Assembly (NCBI GenBank): GCA_043778375.1
Contig: JAYWGH010000003.1
Location: 1-45,519 of the forward strand
Reading direction: 5' to 3'
Length of the DNA stretch: 45,519 nt
DNA from: a bacterium
Lineage (GTDB): Bacteria > Patescibacteriota > Gracilibacteria > BD1-5 > UBA2023
Shown here: piece by piece, positions 1 to 45,519 of the stretch
How the letters are laid out: every line of letters starts with the position of its first letter
How positions within the stretch are numbered: the first letter of the stretch is position 1
Notes under the pieces: model-generated
What the model was told of the DNA's origin: nothing
The model's input: the letters and a program-made list of their open reading frames with translations, nothing else
The model's database searches: none
Made by a program: the position numbers and the translations under genes

Positions 1-870
1 GAGCTCGGGAATAATCTCGACCTTCTCACATGAGCTCTGACTCCAAAGATCGGGAACGAAAAACTCAGCGGATTTACCCCTGAAGTCACTATTTATACAA
101 ACTTTGCCCCTGATCATCTCGACTGGCATGGGAGTATTGAGAAATATTTTGCCGCTAAAATGCGCCTCATCAAAGCTACGAGTGACCTCGTAATCGCTGG
201 GGGAGATCTTAAAACGCAGGCTCAAGGATTTGGGGAAGCATTCCCAGAGTCCACGAAATATATATCAAGAGGGGCTAATCTCATCACCTCATGATGAGAA
301 AAGTATTCACTCTCTGAAACTCCCCTCTCGGGAGAGCACAACGCCCGCAATCTCCTAGCGGTCCTTGAGGCACTCGAGTATCTCGATATATCAGCAACTG
401 ATATCCACAGCGCACTCCCGAGTCTCACAGGACTCCCACACAGACTCGAGTACATAGGATCCCGGAATGGCGTAAGATATGTAGACGACTCAAAGTCCAC
501 CTCCGCTCAGAGCCTCTCGGCGGCACTCGCCTCATATCCAGGTCGTGAGATCGTCCTCATCGCAGGTGGTCACGATAAATGAGATACCTTTGATCATCTC
601 GCCCCACTCCTAGAGAGTCGAGTCCGTACGCTCATTTGTATCGGAGCTACCGGTCCTGCATTTCAGGCACTTGGAGATTCTCTCGGTGTCGAGACACATA
701 CAGCCGAGAGTATGCAAGAGGCAGTCTCTCTCGCGGCTGCATCAGCACAAAATGGTGATACTGTTCTCCTCTCGCCTGGGTGTGCAAGTTTTGGAATGTT
801 TCGTAATTATCTCGACCGAGCAAAACAGTTTCGGGCAGCTTTTGAGAAAATCGCTTGAGATGCTCCCTAA
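1..870 (+). CDS. murD: UDP-N-acetylmuramoylalanine--D-glutamate ligase MurD, C-terminal part (5' end lies outside the window)
   Basis: Frame 1 is open from base 1 when TGA is read as sense. Mur-ligase motifs present: NFAPDHLDWHGS, LSGEHNARN, GLPHRLEY..YVDDSKSTS, IAGGHDK(G)D. In-frame TGA at 31, 292, 295 (tandem), 580 and 856. TAA stop at 868. Confidence 0.85.
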
Positions 871-909
871 CCTCGCTACACTCTAAGGAGATATTTTCTA
901 TTTTAGTCC

Positions 910-1215
910 ATGGCGAGCAAATTTGATATATTTTTAGAGAAGCTCGGGCGTGCCGAGGCTCTCTCCTATGAGGAAGAGTACTCACTCCTCGAGGCAGTAG
1001 CTGGGGGAGATATGATTGCTCGCAATCGCATCGCTGAGAGTAGACTTCGTCAGGTGGCGAGCCTTGTGTGGGAGGCAGGAGAATTCTCAGAGCATATACT
1101 CGCGGGGAATGCCGGGGTTCTCAAAGCTATCGACGCCTTTACCAAAAATCCTGGGAAATGGAGAGACTTTGATGAGTGTGCTGAGTCGTTTATCCGTAAA
1201 GAAATCACCGAGTAA
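910..1215 (+). CDS. 101-aa protein resembling only sigma-70 regions 1.2-2.3 (sigma domain 2), without regions 2.4, 3 or 4
   Basis: LSYEEEYSLLEAVAGGDMIARNRIAESRLRQVASLV...AGNAGVLKAIDAFTKNPGKWRDFDECAESFIRKEITE aligns by eye to the sigma-70 pattern LtxEEExxL..GDxxAxxxLixsNLRLVvsia...eGniGLikAvekFd..kG.rFstYAtwwIRqaItR. ATG start and TAA stop, with an in-frame TAG just upstream. Confidence 0.6.
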   Translation: MASKFDIFLEKLGRAEALSYEEEYSLLEAVAGGDMIARNRIAESRLRQVASLVWEAGEFSEHILAGNAGVLKAIDAFTKNPGKWRDFDECAESFIRKEITE

Positions 1216-1216
1216 T

Positions 1217-2698
1217 ATGCCCCATGTCCACCTCATCGGCGCTGGCGGGATAGGTGTATCAGCTATTGGGCGGTACTACGCCTCACTAGGCTGGACTGTG
1301 TCAGGATCTGATACAGTGAGTAGCACTATCACTGAGGCTCTCGAGCGCGAGGGTATTCATACGGTTATTGGACACTCGGTAGACAATCTCCCCCTCCATA
1401 CCGACCTTGTAGTGCATACAGAGTCAATTTTTATTGCTGCGAAGGGGGTGTCTCATAGTGAGGCAAGCTCGAGTAATCCAGAGCTCATGGCTGCAAAGGA
1501 GCGTGGTCTCAAGATAGAGTCCTATCCTCAGGCGCTTGCAAGTATCACCAACTCTCAGAGGCAGATCGCAGTAACTGGCTCCCATGGTAAATCCTCTACT
1601 ACCTCACTCATCGGAGTGATGCTCCAGGGCTCTACGATCGGTGGCTCTACGATCGTCGGAACACAGCTTGCACAGTTTGGTGGGACAAACTATTTTCACG
1701 ATGTTCGCAGTGACTGGTTTGCGATCGAAGCATGTGAATACAAGCGCCACTTCCTCGAGTATACTCCTGAGATCACCGTCATCACGAATATTGACCTCGA
1801 CCATCTCGACTACTACCGTGATCGAGATGACTATATCTCGGCATTTGTATCGCTCATCGCACGCACTCGTCGGGCAGTCGTCCTCTCGCGAGAGGACATT
1901 GGGTGTCAGGATCTCTATGCTCGAGTGACGGAGGGTGACCGAGCACGACTCGAGTGGTATTGGGTGGATATGGAGAGTATGCAGTGTGGGGAGCTAACTG
2001 ACTCTATAGTCAGTACTAGCGAAAATATGGGAGATCGTGAATCCACCGTAAAAGTTGAGGGGCATACTGGGGGTTTTGGCGAGCCTCGTGAGAGTGTCGG
2101 CGAGCCCGTGGTACAAATCCCGTTTCTCGCGCTGCAAGTGCCGGGCGAGCACCTCAGACTTGATGCAAATCTCGCGTACACAGTTGGTGAGATTATCGGT
2201 ATTCCTGAGTCCGAGAGAATAGAGGGTCTCACTGGATATCGAGGGTCGTGGCGTCGCAGTGAGATAGTCGGAGTAACGCTCGCAGGCAATACGGTCATCT
2301 CTGACTATGGACACCACCCGAGCGAAATTCGCCCAACGCTTGCAGCCCTCCGAGCAAAGTACTCAGGGAGTGAGCTCGTTGTAGTCTTTCAGCCGCATCA
2401 GCACTCTCGGACGCGGGGACTTCTTGACGAGTTTGCTACAGCGTTTACAGATGCTGATAGACTCATCATCCCTGATATTTACGCCTCAAGGGATACTCCC
2501 GAGGATATCGCCTATATGACGACTGCGAGATTTGTGGCAACTGTCGGCGAACATCACTCAAATATCATAGATGGAGGTGGACTTGCTGGTACTTGAGAAG
2601 TCTTAAAAAAGCTCGATCTCCTTGAGACGCATCGTATATTTGTCCTCCTCGGGGCGGGGACGGTGGATGGACTCAGGGGTGGGTTTAGCTTCATGTAA
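1217..2698 (+). CDS. murC: UDP-N-acetylmuramate--L-alanine ligase MurC
   Basis: N-terminus MPHVHLIGAGGIGVSAIGRYY, then GSHGKSSTTS (P-loop) and DHLDYY. The track ORF stops at TGA 2594. Reading on gives GEVLKKLDLLETHRIFVLLGAGTVDG, a typical MurC C-terminus, with TAA at 2696. The upstream part of track ORF 1016.. is rejected because it overlaps the previous gene. Confidence 0.9.
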
Positions 2699-2732
2699 TT
2701 GAAACTCACTCACTTTTCTATATGATTAAAAG

Positions 2733-3059
2733 GTGAATCTACTAGCAACACTCAAAACTCCCAGCGTAGAAGCTGCATTTCAAGAAAATAATGTTGCACG
2801 AGCTTTTATTTTTGGCTCATTTGCTCGTGGTCAAGAAACTGAAAAAAGTGATATTGATATTATCTATGAGCGCCGAGCTGACCGCCCACTCACTCTTTTA
2901 AATATTGGCAATCTCAGATCAAGGTTGCGGGAAGCCACAAGTCGTGAGATCGATCTTGTCTCAACCAACGCTATTCGTAGCGATATACGCAGTGGTATAG
3001 AGTCCGAGAAAATTTGTATATTCGATACTCTATGAGCAAACAAAAAAGAGTCTATTTAG
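2733..3059 (+). CDS. mntA: MNT-type nucleotidyltransferase (antitoxin partner of HEPN/DUF86)
   Basis: FIFGSFARGQETEKSDIDIIYE matches the GSxxRG..DxD minimal nucleotidyltransferase motif. GTG start at 2733. The apparent TGA stop at 3033 is sense under code 25; the real stop is TAG at 3057. Confidence 0.75.
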
Positions 3060-3358
3060 ATCGTATGCTCGAGGCTATCGGTCAGATTGAGAAGTATACT
3101 TTCAGTATGAGCTATCAAAAATTCAGGTCTGAAAGGATGATTTCCGATGCGTGTCTGATGCAGTTTCAATTTTTAGGCGAAACTGCCAGTAAATTACGAG
3201 AAAACTTTCCTGACGAAAATAGTCTTCCCCTCCGAGACATGGTAGATTTTCGCAACTTCATCGCACATGAATATCTCTGAATAGATCTTATGGATGTCTG
3301 GGATACCATACAGGTCGATTTGCCACGACTCAGGCTCATAATCAACGAGATCGACTAG
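3032..3358 (+). CDS. hepT: HepT/DUF86 HEPN-domain toxin
   Basis: RNFIAHEYL(G)IDLMDVWDTIQVDLPRL contains the HEPN Rx4H motif followed by the DUF86-typical YxGID..vW. TGA 3278 sits where Gly is usual. TAG stop at 3356. The ATG at 3032 overlaps the mntA 3' end; an alternative ATG lies at 3014. Confidence 0.75.
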
Positions 3359-3915
3359 TCACCTTTTTTTGTATACCTCTCCTTCCTCGACGCAAACGGA
3401 GTGAGCTCATCCGTAGGGGGATTGGTACGGAGATAATCAACTATACGAGCAAGATACGACTCCACCTCGCTATGGAGTGGCATCCCCCGAAATCTGACCG
3501 CATCAGAGCCAGGATTGATATGGAGACTCCCGTATCCAAACATCTTCCCTGCGAGAGAGCGGTGGAGCGAGGTCATTTGCTTGACAGATTCGAGGCGTAC
3601 TTCCTTAGTATGTGGATCGGATACTCCTGAAACAATTGATTTTATAATCCTTCGACTGGTGATCATGAAATAATTTCCAGAACGGTGGTGAATCAGTCGG
3701 TATACATAAAACGCCAGCACAAGACTCGCGAGAATAATCACCCATACAAGATCGATAAAATATGAGGCTACAAGGGTAATAACCCCAATACCCAATATCC
3801 AGAGGGCCATATCCCCGAGGTGATTCAGGATAAAACTTGCGGGATGCTCGAGTGTGCGGTAGAGAATTTTTTCTCAGGCAAATTGACCAGGAAAAGATTT
3901 TAGTGGAGTAGACAT
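3355..3915 (-). CDS. Membrane protein with bacterial PH (YdbS/YdbT, bPH_2-like) domain
   Basis: The track ORF 3355..3810 extends in frame through TGA (3874-3876) to ATG 3915, giving MSTPLKSFPGQFA(G)EKILYRTLEHP. This is followed by two hydrophobic helices and a PH-like region (ITSRRIIKS...GYGSLHI). Confidence 0.6.
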
Positions 3916-4090: not shown

Positions 4091-5686
4091 ATGAAAATCA
4101 TCTTTGTAACGGGAGGCGTCCTCTCGGGTATTGGAAAGGGTATATCTGCGGCTTCTATCGGAGCACTCCTTACTGCTGCAAGAAAGCGTGTCTACTGCCA
4201 GAAGTTTGACGGCTACCTCAATGTGGATCCAGGCACGATGAATCCTACACAACATGGAGAGGTATTTGTGACAGTCGATGGGGCTGAGACTGATCTCGAT
4301 ATCGGGCACTATGAGCGCTACCTGAATACAGATATGAATCAGTACTCGTCCTACACATCGGGGAAGCTCTACGAAGAGATCATCACTCGTGAGCGCCGAT
4401 GAGACTACCTGGGTGGTACTGTCCAAATCGTGCCTCATCTCACAAATCTCGTAAAAGAGAAAATTCGCCTCGGATATGAGTCTGTAGACGCGGATGTATC
4501 GATCATAGAGATCGGTGGTACCGTCGGTGACATGGAAAATGAGTACCTCCTCGAGTCAGCCCGTCAGCTCCGACATGAGCTTGGAGAGACGAATGTGCAG
4601 TTTGTGCATGTGGCGCTCCTCCCATTTCTCATCGCCTCAAAAGAGCTCAAAACAAAGCCAATTCAGCACTCGATCCGTACGCTCATGAGCTATGGGATCA
4701 GTCCGGATTTCTTGATAGTACGGGCCGACGCTCCGCTCCCCCAAGAGGTACTCTTTAAAATTGGGCTAGCAACAGGAATTGAGCAGAGCCAGATTATCTC
4801 CGCCACCACTCTCGATAGCATATACCGCGTACCCCTCGCCTTCCACGCTGAGCAGGTAGGAGAGAAAATCCTCAAAAAGCTCGCGCTCACCGCCCAAGAG
4901 ATCGATATGAGTCAGTGGACAAAGCTCCTGGCGAACATAGACACGACTGATGGGGATATCTCGATCGGCCTCGTATGAAAGTACGTAGAGCTCGAAGACG
5001 CGTATTTCTCTCTCAACGAGGCGCTCAAGTGCGCAGGATATGCCCACAGAAAGCATGTAAAACTCCATTTTATAGAAGCCGAAAATATCGAAACTCAGGG
5101 TGTCTCTGTGCTCGAGAAGCTTGATGGAATCTGTATTCCTGGAGGATTTGGTACTCGCGGGACGCAGGGGATGATCACGGCTACAAAGTATGCTCGAGAG
5201 AACTGAGTCCCCTTCCTCGGGATATGCCTCGGGTCTCAGATTATGGCGATAGAATTCGCCCGCAATGTCCTAGGGATACAGGACGCCTCGAGTGAGGAAT
5301 TTACTCCAAATGGGGCTCATAATGTGATCCACATCATGGAGCATCAAAAGGATCTCACCACAAAATGAGGGAATATGCGCCTCGGGAACTATCCGTGTGC
5401 CATCGCTCCAGGTACTCGTACAGCAGGGATATACAACAAGGGTGAAGCTCTCGAGCGTCACCGGCATCGATTTGAGTTTAATAATGCCTACCGAGCGCAG
5501 ATGGAGCAGGCAGGATTTATCATTTCAGCCACTTCACCAGATGGAAGTCTTGTCGAGATAGTCGAGCTACGTGATCATCCATTCATGCTCGCGACACAGG
5601 CACATCCTGAGCTCTCCTCTCGTCCCCTCCACCCACATCCACTATTTATGGGGTTTGTGGAGGCGATGGTGGCACGAAAGAGATAA
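4091..5686 (+). CDS. pyrG: CTP synthase
   Basis: [17 protein letters not shown] at the N-terminus, then ERR(G)[16 protein letters not shown](G)[14 protein letters not shown] and (G)GNMRLG. The track fragments (4091-4402, 4430-4978, 5375-5686) share one frame and are joined only by TGA codons. TAA stop at 5684. Confidence 0.95.
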
Positions 5687-5810: not shown

Positions 5811-6896
5811 TTAGCGTTGGCTAAAAAGCTCCTGCATTATATGATCTAGGCGAGAAATTCAAGCGAGAGTTGGGGCGAGGACCTGAGGTCCGCCCAGAGG
5901 TGCCTCACGATACTCGATCTCCCCTACTCTGATCATCTGCTCAAGTGCCCCAGTATCCACCACAAAGGCAGGATTGAGAGCAAAAGTCCGCAGTCCAAAC
6001 ATCGCTCGCTCGAGACAGATCTGCTCGTAGCTCAGAGACTCATCGATATCGAGCTCGCTGCGGTAGTACCCCGTGAAACTCGCCGCCTTTGTCCACCTCC
6101 GACCATCCAAGTAACTCGCAGCAGAGAGCCCAAGCCCGAGAGTAGGAGAGTGATCCCAATAGGCACTATTATGGACACACTCATCCCCAGGAGCCGCAAA
6201 GTTTGAGATCTCGTAGTGATGCCACCCCCTGTCCGCGAGCGCCTCACAAATCTGCGCGTACTCTGCATACTGCTCCTCCCGAGAGATGGCGAGTGACTGC
6301 CAACTCACAGGATAGGTATGCTCATACTCAAGGAGATAGACGCTCGTATGGCAGATTACTGGGTATTTGGTATGGAGCGTACGGAGAGCCTCAACCGTCT
6401 CTCACTTCTGAACATGAGGGAGTCCGAGAATGAGATCAATATTTATGTTCGTATGTCCCGACTGGGTGAGGAGATCGAGCGCCCGATATGTAGTCTCTGC
6501 TGGGGCTCTCCCGACCTCCGAGAGTGCCTCGTTTGAGAGAGTTTGTACCCCGAGCGAAATACGAGTAAATCCAAGCTCCTTGTAAGCGAGTGCTTTCTCC
6601 GGAGTAATATCCTCAGGATTACACTCGATCGTAATCTCGCAATCACTTGATCGCCTCTCGACCGGAAATACGTCGAGGATACGCGAGAGATAGTCGACCT
6701 CGAGAATACTTGGAGTCCCTCCTCCGAGGTAGATCGACTGTACCCGAGGATTATGCTCCTCTATCGCCTCCTCACACTCCCTCAGTAGTGCCGCAATATA
6801 GGTCGCGACCTTTGCTCGGGTCGGTCGTGGATCGAGGGAAAACCGACAGTAGCTACAGCGCTGCGCACAAAATGGAATATGGAGGTAAAAATACAT
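5811..6896 (-). CDS. hemW: Radical-SAM HemW/HemN-like heme chaperone (coproporphyrinogen oxidase-like)
   Basis: YLHIPFCAQRCSYCRF (CxxxCxxC) and IYLGGGTPS. Track pieces 5859-6308 and 6402-6917 are in one frame. The apparent TGA stop at 5859 is read through to TAA at 5811. ATG 6896 lies directly after the adk stop; the alternative ATG 6917 would overlap adk. Confidence 0.85.
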
Positions 6897-7637: not shown

Positions 7638-9020
7638 TTACACTATATCTTCTATAAGAACCTTGTGGAGAATTTTTTGTGCAAGGGCGTATTGTGACGC
7701 ATGCACCCCAAATGTTATTGCCCGCTGTCCAGCAGCTTGAGAGATGGAGATAATATCTATTTTTTCTAATGCAAGAGCAGTAGTGGCTTTAGCCATGAGT
7801 CCTGGCTTATCTGCTAGTCCCTCACCTATACAGTAGATCACACTCATATCGTCTCGGATCTGCAGACTCTCGGGTTTACCCGCAAATAGAGCCGCTAGTG
7901 CTGTCTTTTGCTGTGCGTCTAGTGGCTTATATGTCGTCACAGTAACTTGTGTTTCAGAAGAAGAAATTCCATCAATGGATATTCCAAGATCTGCAAACTG
8001 TCCAGCGAACTCCTTTAAAAATCATACCGATTGCATGCTGTATCCACTCACGGTAACGGTATGAATTGCTTTACGACCATCAACATAGAGAATTCAGGAC
8101 TTCAGAGATCATTTAGATGATATAATAGACTTCCCTGATTCTAAATTAAAGGGATTGTATACCCATATTGGCACTTGAAATGACACAAGCTCCTCTGTAA
8201 TCGTATTACTATTTAGAACTTCCGCACCCGCTCCATTAGCTCCAGTTATCTCCGCAGCGGTGGTGTATTGTAAGGCTGGTATGGGACGAGCTTGCGGATT
8301 GGTGCGAGGATCAGCTGAATATAATCCTGCCTGTTTCTGAACATGAATAGTTGGTTTGTACCCTAGACTCGCTAATCCCACAGCTGCACGCTCGGCAGTT
8401 TTGTCTGTATAGCCTCGTCCAAATGCCTCAAGGATACTCTGCCCTTCTATTGATATATAGCCCGATGCTATACAAATACCCTCATTAAGCTTAGTGGCTA
8501 GGCGAGTTCCAAGACTTAACCCGAGAAGTCGAGAGAGATCTCATTCGCCAAGTTTTGGATTATCTTTTAATAAAACCACGCTTACCCCATGACGAACACG
8601 CAAAATATACTCAAGTACGAGAGCAGACATACGCTCTCCATAGCCTACAAATCTCTGCTCGAGAGCAATAGCGTCTTCGAGTTCGCTCTTTGGTATTTCT
8701 CAAAATGTATGACCATGGTACCTCCCGAGACTTTCTTCGAGTTCAGGGTAGTGCATACCAGCATTTTTGAGCGCATCTATATGAACCCTGTGAAGGGTAC
8801 TTAAAGTATCTTTTGAGTGATTCGGGTTTCAAGCTTTTGCCTGCTCCATAGCCCGCAAAAGCTCAGTCGTAGTATTGAGAGTAGAAGTCCTGAGCGCAGA
8901 GATCACAGCCACTATTGGCTTACCCGATTGCCAGTTTTTCGCGAGCCACTCTGCAGTACGTGGATCTGTAGCATTTTCACCACCAACCTTTATCACATCT
9001 ACTTCACCACTGATATTCAT
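7638..9020 (-). CDS. lysC: Aspartokinase-like amino-acid kinase with C-terminal ACT domain (divergent)
   Basis: VDVIKVGGENA at the N-terminus, then GYGERMSALVLEYIL, FGRGYTDKTAERAAVGL, GLYSADPRTNPQARPIPALQYTTAAE and an ACT-like C-terminus. Three track pieces share one frame. I translated 8382-8828 codon by codon and found only TGA interruptions. Confidence 0.75.
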
Positions 9021-9072: not shown

Positions 9073-9118
9073 CTCTACAAAAAATCCCACTCTCACGAGT
9101 GGAACTCTCTCCCCAAAA
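9073..9118. repeat. Copy 2 of the 46-nt repeat; it overlaps the rnpB 3' end and its terminator
   Basis: Same 32-nt core as 7597-7628. Here the ccccaaaa part forms the 3' strand of the RNase P RNA P1 helix. Confidence 0.9.
9077..9105 (-). terminator. Rho-independent terminator downstream of rnpB
   Basis: The minus strand reads TTCCACTC-GTGA-GAGTGGGA followed by TTTTTTGT. Confidence 0.65.
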
Positions 9119-9490: not shown

Positions 9491-9515
9491 AGGGGGAGTA
9501 TAGAGAATTTGCTCG

Positions 9516-10127
9516 TTAAAACAACCGCATCAAACTACTCTCTTCGATCTGGATAACTCATTTCTTTACAAGCTCACTAAATGACTTCGCCGTAGCTTCT
9601 ACATCTACCATCGCATCGTGCGCTCCTTCAAACCATTCTCCAAAAAGGTGCTTGTAGAGCTCGCCAAGTCGGGGAGCTTTAAACGCAAAACCTCTGCCCT
9701 GGAGTTTACAGTAGTCTGTCGAGCTTTTCATGGTGCACACTGACTTCATCGGCTGATAGTCACCCGGTCGCCCGAGTCTCGCAAGCTCATCCCGGATCAC
9801 CTGTTCGTCATATTCGATGTTGTGTCCTACTACCAGATCAGCAGTATTGAGGAGCCTTAGGATCGCAGGAAGCTGATCCTCGAGATATGGCGCACTCTCT
9901 ACATCTCGATCGTATATACCATGCACCTGAGATGCTCCAAATGGGATATTGATCCGAGGGCGAACGAGGAGGTTGATCCGCTCAATCTCTACAAATCCAT
10001 TCAATACAGAAATCTCTCCGAGTATCCCCGCAAACTGGACAATATATGGCTGCTCGGAGAGTGGCGCGCCCTTGGTACTAAACCCTGTTGTCTCCGTATC
10101 AAATACAAATGCTTTCATGGCGGGCAT
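9516..10127 (-). CDS. DEDDh 3'-5' exonuclease (DnaQ / Pol III epsilon-like)
   Basis: FVFDTETTG (ExoI), VGHNIEYDEQV (ExoII) and GAHDAMVDVEA (ExoIII, H-x4-D). The apparent TGA stop at 9558 is read through to TAA at 9516. Confidence 0.8.
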
Positions 10128-10268: not shown

Positions 10269-11591
10269 CTAATAGAATTTCTTATAATCATAGCTCTTAA
10301 GCTCAGTATCTACCTTACGGATAAGCTCGAGAACTACTCCAACCGTAATGATGAGTCCCGCTCCAGAGATGAGAAAATCAATCTGTGATGTACCACTCAT
10401 ATCGATAAACCCAAATGTGTTGTTGAGCTTGGTCGCTACGTACGGGAACACTGCAATGATAGCAAGGAATGCACCACCCCACATATTGAGTCGATTGCTT
10501 GCTCCTGCGAGATACTCAGCCGTCTCCACTCCTGGGCGAACTCCTGGGATGTATCCTCCTCGCTTTTGGATGTTCTCTGCTATCTCCGTCGGATTGAATA
10601 CGATCGATACATAGAAGAACGCAAAACCAATGATGAGTGCAAAGTACACACCGATATAGAGCCATCCTGGGTTATTCATAGAGAAGTGCTCAACGAGGAA
10701 TTGTCCGATCGTGAGCATATTCCCTCCACTACGAGAGACGAGTACCTGCCCGATCAAACTTGGGAAAGTCACGATAGAGATCGCAAAGATGATAGGGATC
10801 ATACCTGCCTGATTGACGCGTATTGGGAAGTACGACTTCTCGTCTCGCCCCGTCTTTGTGTACACGAGTGGGATCTTACGATACCCCTCAGTAAACTTGA
10901 TGATGATCATGATCACCCCGAGCGTCATGAGGAGGAGAGCTCCAAGGAGCACATAGTTCTGCGCAGAAATATATCCTCCCACATGTCCTGGCACTGCTGC
11001 AAGTACACCCGCAAAGATGATGAGAGACGCTCCATTCCCGACTCCTGACTCGGTGATAAGATCTCCTATCCAGAGGAGGATCATCGTCCCTGCAGTAATA
11101 CAGAGCATCGCTGGGAATACCACTCCCCAAAATGAGGTGGTATTGATAAGCTGACCTCCTCCTGAACTCCCTACGAGTGTATTGATGAGGAGTATCATCC
11201 CGTAACTCTGCGCAAGTGCGAGAGGGAGAGTGAGATAACGAGTATAGTTGTTGAGTTTTTTCTGACCTTGTTCACCCTCTTTTTTGAGAGCCTCAAACTG
11301 AGGGATCACAACCCCGAGGAGCTGAATGATAATCACTGCATTGATATATGGCGCGAGTCCCATGAGTACGATCGAGAAGTTGGAAAGTCATCCACCGAGA
11401 AGCGATGAGAAGAACGCAAGCCCCTGGCTCTGTTTAAGAAAGTCTTGAAGTGCCGCGATACCAGTAATATTTACTCCTGGTACAGGGATAAGTGTGAGGA
11501 ACTTGTAGAGGATGACAAGTGCGATAGTAACGAGCACCTTGTTGCGAACTTCCTGGGAATCCCAGAGTCGAGAAAAGTTTTTGAGGATCAT
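10269..11591 (-). CDS. secY: Preprotein translocase subunit SecY
   Basis: Track pieces 10269-11363 and 11388-11627 are in one frame, joined by TGA. Sequence includes LIPVPGVN, GLAPYINA and multiple TM segments. ATG 11591 (MILKNFSRLWDSQEVRNK) is preferred over the upstream GTG at 11627. Confidence 0.92.
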
Positions 11592-13214: not shown

Positions 13215-13775
13215 TTATTTAGACCCCTTAGCAGCAGTCTTCCCGGCTTTTCGTCGTACGTATTCACCAACGTATCGGATACCTTTCCCCTTGTATGGCT
13301 CAGGTGGCTTGATCTCACGAACAAGTGCCGCAAAGTATCCAAGAAGCTGTTTATCGATACACTCAATATGGATGAGATTCTTTTCTTTTGCGTCAGCAGT
13401 AACGGTGACTCCCGCTGGTATGTCGAGAATTACTTTATGGGAGAATCCTACAGCAAGAGTGAGCTTTGTAGGGCTTGTGATCTCAAACTTGTACCCTACT
13501 CCGATGATTTCAAGAGACTTTTTATATCCATCAGCTACTCCAACAATCATATTTGCAACGAGTGCTCGTGAGAGACCCCAAAATGCTCGAGACTGAGAAT
13601 CCTCAATGTTCTTGATGGCAAAAGTAACTTGATTTGCGTCGAGAGTTACGTCGACTGCGTCTTGAAGAGTCAGAGAGAGTTCTCCCTTTGGACCCTTAAC
13701 TGTGATCTTCTTCCCATTGATGGTCATAGCCACTCCACTTGGGAGAGTAATAGGAAGCTTTCAGATTCGAGACAT
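13215..13775 (-). CDS. rplF: 50S ribosomal protein L6
   Basis: The true N-terminus MSRI(G)[10 protein letters not shown] lies upstream of the track ORF. TGA 13761-13763 falls on the Gly of the conserved SRIGK. TAA stop at 13215. Confidence 0.95.
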
Positions 13776-14976: not shown

Positions 14977-15285
14977 TTACTTAGCGAGTGACTTACCTGA
15001 CTTCTTGGAGATTCGAAGCTTTTTTGATCCTTCGATACTGTACCCAATGCGACTTGGCATCTTTGTAGCAGGATCGATGATCGCAACATTTGAGATGTGA
15101 ATAGATTTTTCGATTTCTACAAAATGACCAGGCGTAGCTCCTTGTTTTTTGATAGCTTTCTTTACCTTATTGATACCCTCTACAAGTACACGCTCTTCTT
15201 TAGCGTAAACAGAAATTACTTTTCAATCTTTGTTCTTGTCTTTTCCTGCGATGATTCGCACGAGATCTCAGCTGTGAATTTTCAT
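14977..15285 (-). CDS. rplX: 50S ribosomal protein L24
   Basis: Missing from the ORF track because of two in-frame TGA codons (15268-15270 and 15223-15225). Translation: MKIHS(G)DLVRIIAGKDKNKD(G)KVISV...VEGINKVKK..IHISNV. Both TGA codons fall on conserved Gly (KKGD and GK). TAA stop at 14977. Confidence 0.92.
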
Positions 15286-27352: not shown

Positions 27353-27769
27353 CTAAAATGAGTCAAAGTTTGCGTCAATCTTTGGAGTTCCAGTCCTACT
27401 AATGCCTGATTCTCAACCACTCCCGAAAAACTTTGTTGATAGGCTCTGAATAGTCGAAAATATTTCTTTTGGGTCAACATACTTACTCACGCTCATACCC
27501 ATGATATCACCGATCTTTGGGATCACAAAGAGAGAGACGATTATCACTATTACTCCTATTACAGCGAAGCGAATAGAATTCACTGCAGGCTTTACTTTTT
27601 CATCCTTACCACCAGAGAGAATGAGCATGACTCCTCACCAAATGATAAACAATACTGCCATAAACCCCGATACAAGCACTACTAGAGCTATACCGACTCT
27701 GACAATATCTGTGAGCTCATACGATTGGTTAATGAGATCAGGGCCACTCGCGAATGCAATATCAAACAT
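27353..27769 (-). CDS. Small two-TM membrane protein, TrbC/VirB2-like (T4SS-pilin-like) family common in CPR genomes
   Basis: VGIALVVLVSGFMAVLFIIW(G)GVMLILSGGKDEKVKPAVNSIRFAVIGVIVIIVSLFV matches the remembered pattern TM-GG..y..SgG..ek...ak..i..aiiGl.i. Under code 25 the track ORF extends at both ends (TGA at 27635-27637 and 27413-27415), giving ATG 27769 and TAG 27353. Confidence 0.5.
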
Positions 27770-28980: not shown

Positions 28981-29041
28981 GATGTATAAAAGATAAGGTC
29001 TTGATCATAAGGGTGACCAAAGTCCCCCTTACTCAAAGATA

Positions 29042-32251: not shown

Positions 32252-32267
32252 TACAAGTTATCCAAAT

Positions 32268-32302
32268 CAAAAAAATACTTCAGACATCTGAAGTATTTTT
32301 TT
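32268..32302. terminator. Bidirectional rho-independent terminator (small + ORF and rpmA)
   Basis: A-run, ATACTTCAG-ACAT-CTGAAGTAT (9-bp stem), then T-run. Confidence 0.75.
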
Positions 32303-32310
32303 ATTGAGGA

Positions 32311-36397: not shown

Positions 36398-36787
36398 TTA
36401 TAGTTTTCGAACTTTCTTTTTTCGACATCCATTGTGTGGCACTGGCGTTATATCAAAGATAGCCATGAGATCTACGCCTGCATTAATAACACCTCGTACT
36501 GCTTGTTCACGGCCCGTACCGATACCTTTTACGTACACAGTTACCTTTTCGAGTCAGTGGAGAGTTTTTGCTTTTGTGAGTGCATTTTCGCTCGTAATCT
36601 GTGCTGCATATGGGGTTGCTTCACGTGCTCCTCGAAATCCAGAGCTCCCACCGGTTGCCCAAGTGAGAACATTTCCTTCTTTATCAGAAACAACTACGTG
36701 AGTATTGTTAAGAGTGGCTGTAATAGATACCACTCCTTCTGCAATATTTTTACGAGTCTTTTTGCTTCGCTTAAGCGTTGGTGCCAT
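36398..36787 (-). CDS. rpsK: 30S ribosomal protein S11
   Basis: The track piece 36554-36787 continues through TGA 36554-36556 as (G)LEKVTVYVKGIGTGREQAVRGV..DITPVPHNGCRKKKVRKL. TAA stop at 36398. Confidence 0.94.
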
Positions 36788-36799: not shown

Positions 36800-37165
36800 T
36801 TATTTTTTCTTATTCTGAATTGCTACCGCCTTTCACTTACGAGTTCGTGCATTAGTCTTTGTTCGCTGTCCTCGAACTGGAAGACGTTTTTTGTGGCGCA
36901 TCCCTCGATAACAATTGATTTCCTGAAATCGTTTAATATTTTGCTGAATTTCTCGTCTGAGATCCCCCTCAATAACATGTTTTTTGAGCTCATCTCGTAT
37001 GAGATCAAGTTCAGGCTCTGTAAGTTCTTCGATCTTTCGATTACGGGCAATCTTGAGACCATCAAGAATTGTCTGCGCAAGAGATCTTCCTACCCCAAAT
37101 ATGTACATCAGGGCTATTTCAGAGTGTTTACCAGTTGGGAGATTTACCCCAGCAATTCGTGCCAT
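36800..37165 (-). CDS. rpsM: 30S ribosomal protein S13
   Basis: [10 protein letters not shown] and [25 protein letters not shown](G)KAV. TGA 36833-36835 falls on the Gly of the conserved TRKG. TAA stop at 36800. Confidence 0.95.
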
Positions 37166-38057: not shown

Positions 38058-40523
38058 TTATTTCTTAATAACCATTTTATACATTTCTATACGGTCGCCA
38101 ACCTCGATTTTGATATCTCATCGAAAGCTGATACCGCAGTCACTCCCAGCTTCTATCTCATGTACATCAGATGGGCCTGATTTGAGATTCATAACCTCGC
38201 CTGATCCTACCTTCTCACCACCTCGCACGACCCGTACCTTTGCTCGGTTTTCGGCTACTCCTTCAAGAACTCACATACCAATAATAAGCTTGTCTTTCCC
38301 GGTAAAAAATATTGCTTTTACCTCGGCAATACCGACTGCAACCTCCTCATGTTTGAGATCTACCATCCCAGTAACTATTGCCTCAACACGCTCGATGATA
38401 TGGTAGATAACTTTTTTATCAATGAACTCGATCTGTGAGTTTGCGAGCGTTTGGCGAGCATGAAGATTTACCCCCACATTATAGGCCACAAGAAGTGCTC
38501 GAGATGTCCCTGCCATGAGTACATCGGACTCATTAATTTCTCCCACTCATGAGTGGATAAAAGTCACCTGTGTCTCACTCGTTGAAAGCTTTCCAAGTGA
38601 GGCCTTGAGCGCCTCGAGCGAACCATTTGAATCACACTTGATAACAATCTTGAGCTGCTTGAGTGATCCTGTCTTGATACGAGTCATAAGGAGTGAGAGC
38701 GAGGCTCCCTCAAAGTTGTGGATAGATTTTTTCCCTTTTGCCATCAAAAACTGTTGCGACTTAGCTGTTGCGGTATCTGAGTCTGGCATAACCTGGAGAA
38801 TATCTCCTCCCTGAACTACCTCAGAAAGTCCTACTACCTGTACTGGTGTACCTGGTCCTGCTTCGTCCATATTCTTCCCTCGATAATCTCTGAGAGCTCG
38901 TACTCGACCTGATATGTGGGCACAGGTAATACAGTCTCCCTTTCGCAGGATTCCTGCGTTAACGAGTACCGTCGAAAGGGCTCCCATCTTAGCGTCGAGG
39001 TGGGACTCAATAACGGTCGCGATAGCCGGTCGTGTTGGATGAGCTCGTAGCTCCATCATATCCGTAAGAAGCAGTACCATATCAAGAAGTGTCTCGATAC
39101 CGAGTCCTGTGAAAGCTGATACTGGCACAACGACTGTAGATCCTCCCCAGTCCTCTGGCTGAAGTCCTTGCTCGGCAAGCTGTCCACGTATAAGATCGAG
39201 GTTTGCACCTGGCTTATCCATCTTATTTACGGCGATGAGCATTGGGATCTCTGCTTCTTTAGCATGATTGATCGACTCGATAGTTTGAGGCTTCATCCCT
39301 TCATCCGCCGCGATAACAATGATCGCAAGGTCCGTGAGCTTGGCTCCACGTGATCGCATGATAGAAAATGCCTCGTGCCCAGGAGTATCGAGAAATGTAA
39401 TCTTTTTTCCATTGCGCTCAACTTGATACGCCCCAATCTTTTGCGTAATACCTCCCGCCTCACCTGAAGCCACTTGTGCCTTGCGGATGTAATCGAGGAT
39501 CGATGTCTTTCCATGATCGACGTGCCCCATAATAGAGATGATCGGTGCTCGCGCTACGAGCTTTTCTGGGTCATCGTTTTTGAGGAGTGCCTCGATGTTT
39601 CCGTTGATAATATCGCTCACTGAGGCGTCCGTACTCACTTCCTTGCTGATTTTTACTCCAAATCCCTCACCAATGAGGTAACAAGTATCGTAGTCGATCT
39701 TGGTATTTACCGTTGCCATCATACCATTTTTCATGAGCTCAGCAACGAGCTTTGGGAGAGGAACTCCAAGTTTTTCTGAAAACTCTTTAACCGTGAGCAT
39801 CTCAGGGAGAAATATCTCCTGACCCGTACGGTCAACCAGTGTCTGCTTCATCTCAGCATCTTGATCTCGATGATCGCGAGCAATCTTTTTTCCGCGACGA
39901 AATTTCCCATCATCCTCCCGTGCTCACCCAACAGTCCGAAGAGACTTCTTTGGCTTATCATAGGTTACTGGTCACTTTGGGCCAGCATTTCGTCCACGTT
40001 TTGGCGCATCTTGATGTGTTTTTGCGTATGCTTGAAGTTTATTCGGACTCCCAGCTGCAGGTGGTACTCCAGTTACTGGCGCAGGAGCTCTTGTTGGAGC
40101 TGGTGCAAAGCTAATTCTTGGGGCTTGTGGTGATCGAACTTTAAAGTTCTTCCCTGCATCGAGTGCAAATCCTGTACGTTTTGCCTCAGGAGCGCTCGTA
40201 CTTACAGATCGTGGACTACGAGCATACGCGTCATCAGGATGAGCGTTTCTGCTTGTAGGCCTCGGTACAGAAGTTTGTGGAGTCGTTGGTCTCGGTACTA
40301 TTTTTGGGGCAGCCTCAAAAGAGATTGTTGGTACAAACGATTTTTTTTCCTCTACAGCTATTTGAGCAGTAGGAGTATTCTCTATAAGAGAACTGCTCAT
40401 TTCAAGAGGTTTTTTTGCCTTTATCTTGAGCTTAAGCCCTGCGGGCTTCTGCCCTTCACTTGTCGCTCATACTGCGGGTGGGACTTGAGCGTAGTAATCG
40501 TCATTATTCGGTGCAACTGGCAT
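38058..40523 (-). CDS. infB: Translation initiation factor IF-2
   Basis: G-domain [22 protein letters not shown] and NKMD, then FIHS(G)VGEINESDV. All track pieces (38271-38546, 38547-39851, 39972-40400) and the C-terminal part to TAA 38058 share one frame. The start is either ATG 40523 (41 codons upstream, containing one TGA) or ATG 40400. Confidence 0.9.
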
Positions 40524-42101: not shown

Positions 42102-42719
42102 ATGGCACTTCCAAAAATAGGTATTGATATCGATGATGTGCTCTGTACCACGGGTATTTGGACACGAGAGGTTATGGTGAGTCAGGGTTTGAGTGCGCCA
42201 CACTACGAAAACTGGAACTCATTTCATCTTTATTTAATCCCTGGATTTCCTATTGTAGATAGGAAAATACTCTGAGATTTTTACAAAAGAGAGCTCTCTG
42301 ATCGAGCATCTCTCGAGATACTTCGCGTTGTCCCCTGATCTCAGGAAGCACTCAAAACTCTTTCAAAGCACTTTGAAATCCATGCTATCACTGCTCGTAG
42401 TATCGAAACGAAGAAAATGACAACCCAGTGGATGCACCATCACTTTGAAGGAGTTTTTAGTACTATAGATTTCCTAGGGGAGCGTATTGACGCAGGTACT
42501 GTTTCAAAAGGTGATATCTGTAAAGAGCTCGGCGTAGTAGCAATGATCGATGATAATATCGACTATGCACTCTCTGTGGCAGAGAAATCTATTCCCTGTG
42601 CTCTCATTCCCAGACCTTGGAATCTCTCTCGCAGCGAAACTCATCCTCACCTCCACCGAGTAGACTCCTGGGATGAGGCCCTCCCTTGGTTTTTATCATA
42701 CGTATGAAAATCCTCGTAG
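42102..42719 (+). CDS. HAD-superfamily 5'(3')-deoxyribonucleotidase-like (NT5C family) protein
   Basis: IGIDIDDVL (DxD nucleophile motif), VVP(G)SQEALKTL, HAITAR and IDDN. Two internal TGA codons, and the apparent TGA stop at 42705 is read through to TAG at 42717. Confidence 0.6.
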
Positions 42720-43768
42720 GACTCTCGGGTGGGGTAGACTCAGCAGTATCCGCCTATTTGTTAAAAAAAACAGGGCATGAGGTGCACGCTGGGTTTATGA
42801 TCAATTATCTCACAGATGATCCAGATTGTACAACCCGCGCTGATCTCGAAGTCGCTCGAGAAGTCGCTGCATTTCTCGAAATACCCTTTTTTACTTTTGA
42901 TTACCGCGAGGCGTACGAGGCTCGAATCACCTCTGTTATTTACGAGGGATATGCTCGTGGTATCACCCCAAATCCAGATGTACTGTGTAATAACCTCATC
43001 AAATTTGAACTCTTCGCTGCTGAAGCCCGCGAGTATGGATATGATAAAATCGCAACGGGGCACTACGCTCAGATAGTAGATAAAAAGCTCTTGAAAGGTG
43101 CCGACTCCCTCAAAGATCAAAGCTATTTCCTCTCCAGGCTTTCTCCCGAACAGCTCGCTTTTGCGCTCTTCCCAATTGGACACCTCACCAAGGCTCAGGT
43201 ACGAGAGATTGCCCTCGATGCAGGACTCCCAAATGCTCTTCGTAGGGACTCCCAAGGGCTCTGTTTTATCGGAAAAGTAAAAATGCAAGATTTCCTCGGA
43301 TCTCGTATAAATGATAAATATGGTGATATACTCGACACTACGGGGATCAAAATCGGCATACACCAGGGAATTCACCGCTATACAATTGGACAGCGTCGTG
43401 GTATAGAGATAGGTGGAGGGCCAGCACTTTTTGTGCTAAAGAAAAATGCCACGGATAATACCCTCATTGTTGGTCCTGAGAATGCTCCTGAACTATTATC
43501 TCGTGAGTGTACTGGATCTCAGTGGTCATCTCCAAGTGGAGTTACAATCCAAGAGCTCGTTAGTGAAACTCTCACAGCAAAGATACGCTACGGGCAAACC
43601 GACCAATCATGTAGAGTACTCAGTATCTCAGCTCAATGAGAGGTAATTGTGAGCTTTGAAGTTGCACAGAGAGCCATAGCCCCAGGACAGTATCTTGTCC
43701 TCTATGCGAGCGACGAACTTCTGGGGTCATTCTTTATTGGTGAGGCTTCGCTTGTTTTGCCTGAATAA
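42704..43768 (+). CDS. mnmA: tRNA 2-thiouridine(34) synthase MnmA
   Basis: MKILVGLSGGVDSAV (PP-loop), TPNPDVLCN, ATGHYA and DQSYFL. TGA 43637 is read through to give ..AIAPGQYLVLYASDELLGSFFIG, a typical MnmA C-terminus. TAA stop at 43766. Confidence 0.92.
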
Positions 43769-44237
43769 TACTTGTAATACGTAAGCGTAATGCTACGTAA
43801 TAGGCGATATATGGAATATGCGCTCCCAGAAAAGCGGTAATAAACGCTCATCCCGAGAAAGAGCTCACCCCGAGAAGAAATTTTATCTCTTGAAGGAACG
43901 AGGTATTGTGACTCACAAGAAGGTGAAAAAGGACATACCCTATCTGTCCAAGATATACGAGAAGGAGAGTAATCCCATAGAAAAATATAGTTGAGAGAAA
44001 GGGTATCGGATCAGGATTAGTGAGTGCTCTGGCCTCCTCAATACGGGAGTGTACCATCCCAAGTGCAATAATTGTGGCCACTACACGGGCAGTAACTTCA
44101 AAAAAACTTGAGAGAAATCCTGGAGTAAGAAATGTAGAGAGAATGGATATGCCTATAAAAAATATGGCAGTATAGACAGCTGCCAAACTCGCAATGCGGA
44201 GTGCTATTTGTGAATCATCAAGATCTGAATCGCTCAT
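43734..44237 (-). CDS. Hypothetical polytopic membrane protein
   Basis: Several hydrophobic helices. The apparent TGA stop at 43848 is read through into a further helix-like segment, AFITAFLGAHIPYIAYYVALRL, with TAA at 43734. Its 3' end overlaps the mnmA 3' end convergently. Confidence 0.5.
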
Positions 44238-44256: not shown

Positions 44257-45093
44257 TTACCAAAACTGAAAGTAACATTTTGGATACCGAATTGTGTGCT
44301 CTATAAAGTTGAGTTTAAAATCCGTATAACCCTGCTGATCACTCGTCATATGTATATCCCGCAGATGATCAAAGTGGATATAAGTAAGACCTTGAGTGAG
44401 GGACTCCATGTACCAAGCATCTATGAGTCCTGTCCCCGCTTGTGTGAGCTTAGCATTTTTACTGGTAAAGGCTACAAGATGCGTACTCATATTGAGAGTA
44501 TCCAGTACGGCGAGGCCTGCTACTGGACCTTCTGTTTTAGATACAGCGAGAAAAGACCGTACTGAGGTTGCATCAAGATTATGCATTCGCAGGTAATACT
44601 TGATGTAATCAGCTTTAAAATGATGCTGCGTCTTTGTATTGCGAAAGGCTTGCACAAAGGCATCGGCGTCTACTTGAAGTATTTCTACGTCGCTCTGAGC
44701 AAGAAACCTCTTACGAGCTCTCCGGGCACGCTCATTCCAGCGCATCCAGTATTTCTCATATGCGTATCCTATCCCTGTATAAGTAAAATGTCCGCCAGGG
44801 ATCATGAGCTCTCGCCATCATTGTCATGGAGTATCAGTATGTGCCGGGATCCAAAGGACGAGTCCACGTTTAAAGCCTGCGCTCTTGAGGAGCTCTTTGG
44901 TAGGTGGAAGGTCTGTTCTCTCAAACTTCACAATTTGAAAAATCTTGAAGTCTTTTATCCAACCAAATTGAGGGCCAACATCGACTGTATGAATATGACT
45001 CTCCTCTAGATACTTACGATATACAGGAGAGATGCTACGAAAATATTGAAAATCTGCGGGAACATCAGCTCCAGTGAGTTCAGTTGAGTGCAT
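44257..45093 (-). CDS. GNAT-fold FemAB-like (Acetyltransf_6-like) protein
   Basis: Track pieces 44257-44805 and 44824-45093 are in one frame, joined by TGA codons. The layout W..RARRARKRF...VEILQVD, HLVAFTS...AGTGLID and a C-terminal GYTDFKLNF resembles FemAB/BioF2-like acyltransferases. The family call is from memory only. Confidence 0.4.
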
Positions 45094-45129: not shown

Positions 45130-45142
45130 GTAAAGATTATAA

Positions 45143-45219
45143 TGGTGGGTAATGTAGGATTCGAACCTACGACCCTCTGCGTGTAAAGCAGATGCTCTAA
45201 CCAACTGAGCTAATTACCC
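45143..45219 (-). tRNA. tRNA-Val (anticodon UAC), CCA encoded
   Basis: Reverse complement reads GGGTAATTAGCTCAGTTGGTTAGAGCATCTGCTTTACACGCAGAGGGTCGTAGGTTCGAATCCTACATTACCCACCA. The anticodon loop is U-U-UAC-A-C. Confidence 0.9.
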
Positions 45220-45232
45220 GAAATAGTGTATA

Positions 45233-45309
45233 TGGTGGGTCATACTAGATTCGAACTAGTGACCTCTTGGATGTCGACCAAGCGCTCTAACCAACTGAGC
45301 TAATGACCC
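45233..45309 (-). tRNA. tRNA-Val (anticodon GAC) with C at position 33, CCA encoded
   Basis: Reverse complement reads GGGTCATTAGCTCAGTTGGTTAGAGCGCTTGGTCGACATCCAAGAGGTCACTAGTTCGAATCTAGTATGACCCACCA. The anticodon stem is CTTGG/CCAAG and the loop is U-C-GAC-A-U. Confidence 0.8.
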
Positions 45310-45317
45310 AAAAGAAA

Positions 45318-45394
45318 TGGTGCCCGGGGCGGGATTCGAACCCACGACCTTCAGCTTAGAAGGCTGCTGCTCTATCCAACTGAGCTACCCGGGC
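45318..45394 (-). tRNA. tRNA-Arg (anticodon UCU), CCA encoded
   Basis: Reverse complement reads GCCCGGGTAGCTCAGTTGGATAGAGCAGCAGCCTTCTAAGCTGAAGGTCGTGGGTTCGAATCCCGCCCCGGGCACCA. The anticodon loop is C-U-UCU-A-A. Confidence 0.88.
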
Positions 45395-45438
45395 AGAAGT
45401 AAATTCATTGCGGGAGAGGAAATTTCTCACCTCCTCTA

Positions 45439-45519
45439 TCTTGGCGTTTACCGACTCTTCCACCGTTAAGACGGCAGTACCATAGGCACGACGAAGCTTG
45501 ACTTCTGTGTTCGGGATGG
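45439..45519 (-). rRNA. rrf: 5S rRNA, 3' portion (5' part lies beyond the window end; 3' end approximate)
   Basis: The minus strand reads CCATCCCGAACACAGAAGTCAAGCTTCGTCGTGCCTATGGTACTGCCG...GGAAGAGTCGGTAAACGCCAAGA. This matches the 5S consensus CC(A/C)UxCCGAACxCAGAAGUxAAGC...GAUGGUACUG...GAGAGUAGG. Confidence 0.85.

Follow-up and report, generated by a model that had tools for sequence, protein, structure and literature searches.

Reassignment of UGA from a stop codon to glycine (NCBI translation table 25) has been known in the lineage of Candidatus Gracilibacteria since 2013 and received its proteomic confirmation in 2014, when a BD1-5 bacterium yielded 97 glycine-specific versus 3 tryptophan-specific peptides at UGA (PMC4032931). 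Recoded genomes carry a tRNA-Gly that has the UCA anticodon and the identity elements G1:C72, C2:G71, G3:C70 and U73 (PMC8629427), and they lack release factor 2 (RF2), which is present in non-recoded genomes (PMC8629427; bioRxiv 10.64898/2026.05.24.727570). Table 25 is confined to the GTDB class JAEDAM01, with its orders Absconditabacterales and BD1-5, while table 11 applies to other genomes that carry the NCBI label Candidatus Gracilibacteria (bioRxiv 10.64898/2026.05.24.727570; PMC8629427). The present analysis concerns the meaning of UGA in a stretch of 45,519 bases, namely positions 1 to 45,519 of contig JAYWGH010000003.1 in GenBank assembly GCA_043778375.1, hereafter the window, for which an earlier note, made from the letters alone, had proposed that UGA is a sense codon for glycine and that the open reading frame (ORF) track under the standard code is systematically fragmented. 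Both proposals hold up. We regard it as very probable that the window is chromosomal DNA of an uncultured bacterium from the Candidate Phyla Radiation (CPR), belonging to the UGA-recoded Gracilibacteria (BD1-5 type; JAEDAM01), in which UGA stands for glycine according to table 25 and only UAA and UAG terminate. Glycine at UGA is here already known biology and no new kind of genetic code, just as the earlier note had itself remarked, and the value of the result is practical, not conceptual: every feature of the window must be read with table 25, and the gene calls publicly available for this contig, made with code 11, are wrong.

When the window is compared with the UGA-recoded Candidatus Gracilibacteria (BD1-5/GN02; JAEDAM01), nothing of substance differs. 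Namely, UGA aligns with glycine, it does not terminate, ribosomal protein L30 is missing, and the GC content of 46.0% lies inside the published range of 0.21-0.53 for recoded genomes (PMC8629427). TGA makes up about 4% of the window's glycine codons, at the low end of the 1% to 18% seen in 37 recoded relatives, among which the share is lower at higher GC (Spearman -0.43, p = 0.008). The other table-25 lineage, Absconditabacteria (SR1), likewise reads UGA as glycine, has lost RF2 and carries tRNA-Gly(UCA), but there CGA and CGG are predicted to mean tryptophan as well (PMC8629427), whereas the window reads both as arginine. The standard-code sister lineages (GTDB class Gracilibacteria sensu stricto, table 11) belong to the same broad CPR group and have a syntenic ribosomal protein cluster, but their SecY is about 45% identical and they show no in-frame TGA.

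Our gene model admitted only TAA and TAG as stops, used a codon log-likelihood score trained on eight long genes, and had its starts corrected by hand (for murC, L24, hepT, mnmA and secY). It comprises 64 genes with 13,794 codons, so that 91% of the window is coding. In-frame TGA occurs 50 times in 24 of these genes, or 3.6 times per 1000 codons, and TAA and TAG do not occur in frame at all, which bears out the note's count of more than 20 genes cut by TGA alone. Off frame, the same genes contain TGA, TAA and TAG at 27.8, 14.6 and 11.3 per 1000, respectively; by our own arithmetic, the chance that randomly placed stops would give 50 TGA among 50 interruptions is ~0.52^50, or roughly 5e-15. On average, a gene with in-frame TGA keeps 68% of its length in its longest piece without interruption, and 42% in the piece that runs from its start up to the first TGA. 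The public code-11 calls on the same contig present IF-2 as 142, 434 and 91 amino acids and GyrA as 171, 360 and 322, and they also split PyrG, SecY and GroEL. With 24 of 64 genes truncated or split under code 11, the recoding does decide how the other features are read, as had been claimed.

To which amino acid TGA corresponds was read from related loci. Scanning one genome for each GTDB species with SecY as the seed gave the best 80 loci, each up to 21 kb, consisting of 59 loci from metagenome-assembled genomes (MAGs) labelled Candidatus Gracilibacteria, Patescibacteria or 'Peribacteria' (SecY 62-81% identical to that of the window), 11 distant CPR loci (about 45%), and 10 loci from ordinary bacteria (Spirochaetales, Myxococcota/Deltaproteobacteria and Nitrospinales). 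The 11 distant loci were treated as standard-code because they are free of in-frame TGA, with up to 3,068 codons aligned in a single locus. A metagenome scan seeded with PyrG contributed another 14 loci (94 in total), which have no conserved neighbours and so give in-lineage data for pyrG only. The ORFs of all loci, delimited by TAA and TAG, were translated with TGA masked, the window proteins were aligned to them, and the codons were read off. Opposite the window's TGA, the recoded relatives have GGA 101 times, TGA 46, GGT 35, GCA 16, GGG 10, GGC 4 and TGG 2 times. In the other direction, opposite the relatives' TGA, the window has GGA 233 times, GGT 152, GGG 86, GGC 31 and TGA 46 times; in other words, it has GGN at about 500 of the about 700 positions at which relatives have TGA. 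In the standard-code loci, the residues opposite the window's TGA are Gly (71%), Ala (24%), Pro (2%) and Lys (2%), a profile close to that of the window's ordinary GGN codons (G 70-81%, A 4-8%). What is more, in a Codetta-like likelihood calculation, in which the empirical substitution profiles of the amino acids are set one by one against the TGA columns, glycine is the winner, with a margin over the runner-up of +45 log units for the standard-code loci and +339 for the recoded ones. Judged by these codon comparisons, UGA is in the window a sense codon equivalent to GGN, that is, glycine. It follows from the same comparisons that a single 45-kb window, set against its relatives, suffices to infer the amino acid, without recourse to the tRNA or the release factors.

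At the level of single sites, glycine or TGA is in the majority among recoded relatives at 16 of the 27 sites with locus data, and glycine is in the majority at 7 of the 10 sites that have data from standard-code loci. When loci and PDB structures are taken together, about 20 sites can be confidently aligned to standard-code orthologues, nine or ten of which are Gly; the remaining positions are visibly variable, with A, N, K, M, S, H, Q, D, E or T, and Trp or Cys stands at none. Single-frame alignments to PDB entries pass straight through the TGAs of CTP synthase, IF-2, MurD, GyrA, MurC and the aspartokinase. As far as the alignments reach, TGA is aligned with glycine in standard-code orthologues wherever the position is conserved.

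When the same procedure is applied to all 62 non-stop codons, each comes out with its standard meaning. The apparent exceptions are artefacts: TGG and ATG are the single codons of their amino acids, which defeats the leave-one-out profile (their top residues are W at 63% and M at 33%), and TTA and CCC have merely 25 and 41 aligned residues. CGA, at 21.5 per 1000 codons the commonest arginine codon of the window, is aligned with R at 60% and K at 11%, and CGG with R at 57%, arginine being the best model for both; the Absconditabacteria pattern, in which CGA and/or CGG is rare and means tryptophan, is not what we find. On this reckoning, no codon besides UGA is reassigned in the window. TGA itself is unevenly used. 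Namely, the genes for ribosomal proteins, EF-Tu, IF-1 and RpoA contain 5 TGA to 436 GGN (1.1%), and the other genes contain 45 to 654 (6.4%; Fisher p = 9e-6), and this avoidance in translation genes is the pattern expected of a codon that is read by a minor tRNA.

The 24 genes with in-frame TGA are the following, with X marking the TGA wherever its context is given.

1..870, + strand: 3' part of murD, cut by the window start; TGA at 31, 292 and 295 (in tandem, X-X), 580 (GGHDK-X-D) and 856
1217..2698, + strand: murC, with three Mur ligase domains; TGA at 2594
2733..3059, + strand: mntA-like nucleotidyltransferase (antitoxin), Polbeta/NTP_transf_2; TGA at 3033
3032..3358, + strand: hepT-like RNase (toxin), HepT-like domain 1-120/120 across the TGA at 3278 (HEYL-X-ID)
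3355..3915, - strand: hypothetical membrane protein, positive coding score, no Pfam match; TGA at 3874
4091..5686, + strand: pyrG (CTP synthase); TGA at 4400 (RERR-X-DYLG), 4976 (GLV-X-KY), 5204 and 5366
5811..6896, - strand: radical SAM protein (HemW-like), Radical_SAM domain across 6402; TGA at 6402 and 5859
7638..9020, - strand: aspartokinase-like protein; TGA at 8829, 8700, 8541, 8109, 8094 and 8022
9516..10118, - strand: RNase T/DnaQ-family exonuclease, RNase_T domain; TGA at 9558
10269..11591, - strand: secY, split by the code-11 call into 364 + 67 amino acids; TGA at 11388
13215..13775, - strand: rplF (L6), Ribosomal_L6 domain; TGA at 13761 (MSRI-X-K)
14977..15285, - strand: rplX (L24), ribosomal_L24 domain; TGA at 15268 (HS-X-D) and 15223 (KD-X-K)
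20740..22065, - strand: sensor histidine kinase, HisKA and HATPase_c; TGA at 21763 and 20749
22079..22744, - strand: OmpR-family response regulator, Response_reg 1-110/111 across the TGA at 22496
22755..23876, - strand: AI-2E family transporter, AI-2E_transport 3-324/327 across both TGAs, at 23268 and 23136
23880..26501, - strand: gyrA; TGA at 25986 and 24897
27353..27769, - strand: small membrane protein, T4SS-pilin-like, T4SS_pilin domain across 27635; TGA at 27635 and 27413
36398..36787, - strand: rpsK (S11), Ribosomal_S11 1-109/110 across the TGA at 36554 (H-X-LEKVTV)
36800..37165, - strand: rpsM (S13), Ribosomal_S13 domain; TGA at 36833 (TRK-X-K)
38058..40523, - strand: infB (IF-2); TGA at 40467, 39972, 39924, 38547 (IHS-X-VGEIN), 38271 and 38118
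42102..42719, + strand: conserved hypothetical protein with homologues in at least 8 recoded relatives; TGA at 42273, 42336 and 42705
42704..43768, + strand: mnmA, with three tRNA_Me_trans domains; TGA at 43637
43734..44237, - strand: hypothetical membrane protein, positive coding score, no Pfam match; TGA at 43848
44257..45093, - strand: hypothetical protein, positive coding score; TGA at 44824 and 44818

The earlier note had quoted twelve of these TGAs as lying on conserved glycines. All twelve coordinates are indeed in-frame TGAs (TCA on the + strand for the minus-strand genes) in the contexts it had described, and the conservation applies to about eight, that is, to pyrG 4400 and 4976, rplF, rplX 15223, rpsM, rpsK and infB 38547, and in part to murD 580; it does not apply to hepT 3278, to rplX 15268 or to one member of the murD tandem pair. 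The L6 site has G in 12/12 standard-code orthologues (relatives: G 18, TGA 17), rplX 15223 in 4/4 (relatives: G 21, A 9, S 4), the S11 site in 10/10, and the S13 site in 8/10 (relatives: G 4/4), with rplX 15268 being mixed in standard-code orthologues and having G 14, TGA 6, D 7 and N 4 in relatives. A cluster of S11 proteins at 90% identity has G at the TGA position in 11/11 full-length members and also includes the public code-11 product of this very contig, a 77-residue stump ending at the TGA. In an exact look-up of the table-25 and table-4 translations, the glycine version of S11 was the only one on record, so that the collection searched shows no sign of a table-25 annotation of this genome. 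In CTP synthase, the four sites, in order, have G, G, K/N and G in 5/5 PDB orthologues, and the relatives have GGN or TGA at three of them and K/Q at 5204.

The check that had been proposed on PyrG, GyrA, IF-2, SecY, L6, L24, S11 and S13 also brings out sites without glycine in standard-code orthologues. Namely, E. coli GyrA can be aligned through both TGAs, with A and N opposite, and secY 11388 faces Ala in 21/21 standard-code orthologues, while the recoded relatives there have G in 57/59 and TGA in 2/59. The PDB structures of IF-2, aligned through, have G, M and N/S at infB 38547, 38271 and 38118, respectively; relatives have G or TGA at 39924, 38271 and 38118 and A at 38547, and the sites at 40467 and 39972, in the N-terminal low-complexity part, vary among relatives. 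In murD, the Mur_ligase_M and Mur_ligase_C domains (Pfam) extend across 292/295 and 580. At the tandem pair, just one of the two positions is G in each PDB orthologue; position 194 of the PDB MurD proteins is G in S. agalactiae and S in E. coli, and relatives have G or TGA at 580.

Several of the remaining sites show that the protein goes on beyond the TGA. The alignment of MurC with its H. influenzae counterpart runs on past 2594 as far as the GAG motif close to the C-terminus, LLGAGTVD being paired with AQGAGSVS, although the public code-11 call ends at 2596. In MnmA, the C-terminal tRNA_Me_trans domain (20-74/77) covers the TGA, at which relatives are variable (E, D, TGA, G or a gap). The note had named the continuing C-termini of precisely these two proteins, and rightly so. 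In HepT, the invariant D, L, VW and DLP residues come in frame after 3278, with H, N, K and Q opposite that site in four standard-code homologues from plasmids; a PDB search with HepT gave no match. The HemW-like protein has G at 6402 in 4/5 relatives, and at 5859 the TGA is kept in 4/4, with a conserved C-terminus beyond; similarly, at 9558 of the exonuclease the relatives (n=48) have G 22 and TGA 15 times, and the C-terminus ...EESSLMRLF is conserved after the site. The AA_kinase domain of the aspartokinase-like protein covers three TGAs and is followed by ACT domains (Pfam); in distant PDB alignments, E. coli LysC has G at position 333, and the remaining sites lie in poorly aligned stretches. 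At 22496, in a variable loop of the response regulator, PDB orthologues have S, D, E or T. The AI-2E transporter is split by the code-11 calls into 202, 42 and 84 amino acids, the hypothetical protein at 44257..45093 appears on two assemblies as two collinear code-11 pieces of 89 and 182 amino acids, and a code-11 fragment of the membrane protein at 43734..44237 is called on public contigs. The gene at 42102 has variable sites in relatives (E/W/I/T and P/N/R/S).

If UGA means glycine, it should not end genes. Wherever a gene could be aligned up to its C-terminus, we noted which of TAA, TAG and TGA comes first beyond the aligned part; infB, whose alignment reached only residue 590 of 821, was left out of the 28 window genes, and the 11 distant CPR loci were counted together with the remaining standard-code loci. 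The conserved C-terminus is followed by TGA as the first stop in 0/28 window genes and in 3/785 (0.4%) of those of recoded relatives, compared with 123/272 (45%) in standard-code orthologues. The claim that genes here end in TAA or TAG was thus correct: the stops are TAA 46 and TAG 17 times in a 63-gene model, to which hepT adds a further TAG.

That said, several points weigh against the plain reading of UGA as glycine and nothing else in a BD1-5 genome. About half of the alignable TGA sites face residues other than glycine in standard-code orthologues, all at variable positions, those of hepT and gyrA and three of infB among them, and orthologue data from the loci exist for 27/50 sites only, 23/50 being without. 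The placement at the level of the order, BD1-5, is an inference from SecY similarity and record titles and not a phylogeny. As for the machinery, UGA would, going by the literature, be decoded by a dedicated tRNA-Gly that has the UCA anticodon and the glycine identity set G1:C72, C2:G71, G3:C70, U73, and the loss of RF2 (prfB) would leave no termination to compete at UGA. ARAGORN and Rfam reveal neither a UCA-anticodon tRNA nor any tRNA-Gly, be it in the window itself, in the 8.8 kb of the contig upstream of it, or in related loci amounting to about 1.5 Mb (the 80 genome loci, L001-L005 and the 14 metagenome loci); prfB is not among the genes identified in 54 kb, and with a genome of about 1 Mb its absence cannot be judged from this. 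Finally, TGA falls within the last 8 codons of 4/64 genes, two of these being ATGA overlaps with the next start codon, which would also fit residual termination.

This last point leads to the alternative that fares best, namely that UGA has a dual meaning, glycine inside genes and a stop, or partial stop, at the mntA/hepT junction, at the junction of the 42102 gene with mnmA, and at the ends of murD and the histidine kinase. The TGA at 3033 of mntA overlaps the ATG of hepT as ATGA (3032-3035) and is followed by 7 codons up to the TAG at 3057, giving MntA the tail ...FDTLGANKKESI. The same overlap, there a stop/start arrangement, is found in 3/4 standard-code pairs of MntA and HepT on plasmids, in which MntA itself comes to an end a little ahead of the junction point. 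Likewise, the TGA at 42705, three codons from the end of its gene, overlaps the ATG of mnmA as ATGA (42704-42707); beyond the last aligned position, the homologues in relatives have 5-9 further residues, with their ends only a few residues from the junction, and the ancestral stop may have been there too. The TGAs of murD and the kinase lie 3-4 codons before the ends, which read ...KIAGDAP and ...ILEEGVL, respectively, and the tails beyond the near-terminal TGAs of the four genes are not conserved in relatives. On the other hand, four such genes compare with about 1.8 expected, an excess that by our own arithmetic is not significant, and an ATGA arises with any second codon that begins in A. 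Relatives of both MurD and the kinase extend well past the TGA position, the latter by 14-17 residues, so that there is no hint of a stop at 20749, 3 codons before the TAG. In recoded relatives, TGA is hardly ever the first stop, as given above, and RF2, the sole factor that reads UGA, is absent from published recoded genomes (PMC8629427). We consider a residual, context-dependent terminating role of UGA at a few gene ends, alongside its decoding as glycine, to be very improbable; if true, position-dependent dual decoding of a single codon would have a bacterial case in this lineage. With UGA as glycine throughout, the TGA at 3033 looks like a fossil stop that is now translated, by which MntA has been extended by 7 residues, and the mntA/hepT junction may go back to the pair's acquisition from a donor that used the standard code.

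Translation table 4, in which UGA is tryptophan, is used by Mycoplasmatales, by insect endosymbionts such as Hodgkinia, Zinderia, Nasuia and Stammera, and by some Eggerthellaceae. These systems are like the window in their sense UGA, in the fragmented ORFs under the standard code and in the expected loss of RF2; a tryptophan reading would remove the fragmentation equally well, and it is the commoner bacterial reassignment (PMC8629427). Where they differ is in the amino acid, tryptophan and not glycine, and in belonging to an unrelated lineage. In the window, about 400 residues were aligned opposite TGA, and 2 of them are Trp, which belong to the same variable site in a hypothetical protein; alignment mainly with Trp, which the earlier note had listed as fatal to its own proposal, is thus not observed. 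The tryptophan model, the lowest-ranked of the plausible ones, lies below glycine by 143 log units for the standard-code loci and by 985 for the recoded ones, TGG pairs with W in 63-81% of cases while TGA pairs with G, and no PDB orthologue has W at a TGA site. The TGA columns thus do not behave as tryptophan columns, and we hold table 4 to be very improbable here.

Less credible still is the standard code, with the TGAs as real stops that arose by pseudogenisation, sequencing error or assembly error, even if the truncated and split genes in the public code-11 calls have just that appearance. The 50 interruptions consist of TGA alone, with no TAA or TAG, they affect essential single-copy genes (L6, L24, S11, S13, SecY, IF-2, GyrA and PyrG), frame and homology carry on past every testable TGA, relatives share the TGA at the very same codon in 46 instances, and conserved genes do not end in TGA in the window, as opposed to 45% of the standard-code orthologues. 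The TGAs are also retained in independent records. Namely, the window corresponds to positions 25129-70647 of ENA contig ERZ27314324:k141_606882 (70,690 bp), the 33.8 kb compared showing 5 mismatches, and the Logan assembly of SRR14689465 has 1 mismatch in 11.8 kb. Strain variants that are 97-99% identical occur in two other ENA assemblies, and one of them (ERZ28574018), which differs by 26 single-nucleotide polymorphisms, keeps TGA at 580, 856 and 2594. Selenocysteine, for which UGA does serve as the codon in many bacteria, can be dismissed with near certainty, given 50 sites over 24 genes that encode ribosomal proteins (never selenoproteins), ligases and transporters, no Cys among the residues aligned opposite TGA, and no tRNA-Sec found in the window by ARAGORN or Rfam.

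Glycine as the meaning of UGA also agrees with the position of the window among its relatives. The nearest SecY loci (about 80%) come from the MAGs JAVKLK01, JAQTZK01, CAIVSN01, JAVHRB01 and JBEICN01, and since the nearest GTDB species representative reaches only about 80% SecY identity, the source organism is probably a separate species. In-frame TGA is present in all loci down to about 62% SecY identity that have more than one aligned gene, which makes at least the best 57 SecY loci. The 11 TGA-free distant loci (L063-L071, L073 and L074) are filed at NCBI as Candidatus Gracilibacteria or 'Peribacteria', so the NCBI label alone does not predict the genetic code; as judged from these sequences, the split between the recoded loci and those at about 45% matches the published divide between table 25 and table 11. 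The earlier description of the organism as Gracilibacteria/Absconditabacteria-like can be narrowed. Its first half is supported by the SecY relatives, and its second is less likely: CGA and CGG, predicted to be tryptophan in Absconditabacteria, are arginine here, which favours the BD1-5 side of the recoded clade, and the label Absconditabacteria does not occur among the 80 best SecY loci. The absence of L30, which had been noticed from the outset, is confirmed, with 19 nt separating S5 (12138-12851) from L15 (11663-12118), as is usual for CPR. The order of the cluster, canonical in other respects, is L3-L4-L23-L2-S19-L22-S3-L16-L29-S17-L14-L24-L5-S14-S8-L6-L18-S5-L15-SecY.

Reading TGA as sense has the opposite risk, since long spurious ORFs then open up on the wrong strand as well as over RNA genes. 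A choice of the longest ORF first was tried and rejected, as it selected wrong-strand ORFs over the ribosomal protein cluster, and the codon log-likelihood model took its place. The second kind of error is seen at the class A RNase P RNA.

9109-9488, - strand: bacterial class A RNase P RNA, matched by Rfam RF00010 over its full length (1-367/367) at 159.7 bits

When TGA is sense, a spurious ORF of 147 codons with 3 TGA (9075-9515) opens over this RNA, which shows that ORF calling with table 25 over-predicts on RNA genes. Within the half of the window that holds the RNase P RNA, the three differences from the ENA contig (9257, 9270 and 9277) all fall inside that RNA.

ARAGORN and Rfam find seven tRNAs in the window: Thr-GGU, Leu-UAA, Ala-UGC, Asp-GUC, Val-UAC, Val-GAC and Arg-UCU. 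The last three form a cluster, Val(UAC)-Val(GAC)-Arg(UCU), at 45143-45394 on the minus strand, at the end of the window. The ENA contig ends 43 nt past the window, and other assemblies with the neighbouring gene end at the same place; the tRNA cluster, or a repeat adjoining it, seems to break every assembly, and more tRNAs may sit just beyond.

As to the neighbouring genes, S10 does not adjoin L3. Namely, tuf-S10 (28663-30235, minus strand) lies ~8.5 kb from L3-L4-L23 and the rest of the cluster (from 20125 downwards), and the interval holds L28, S16, a KH protein, the pilin-like protein, gyrA, the AI-2E transporter and the two-component system, as well as a thymidylate-kinase-like gene on the opposite strand; where S10 usually sits, there is a 137-residue protein without a Pfam match (20264-20677). 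An unusual neighbour, a protein of 138 amino acids with a cyclic-nucleotide-binding domain (PF00027 in public calls; 37631-38047, minus strand), is found between infB and infA. The ~470 nt between an FtsX-like gene and rpmA (L27), at 31838-32310, contain no gene of the model and no Rfam match at the gathering threshold. Lastly, an ORF of 101 amino acids (910-1215, plus strand) with no Pfam match lies between murD and murC. The strain variant in ERZ28574018 (our locus L005) has 24 differences inside it, all but one at third codon positions, and this bias indicates that it is a real gene under purifying selection.

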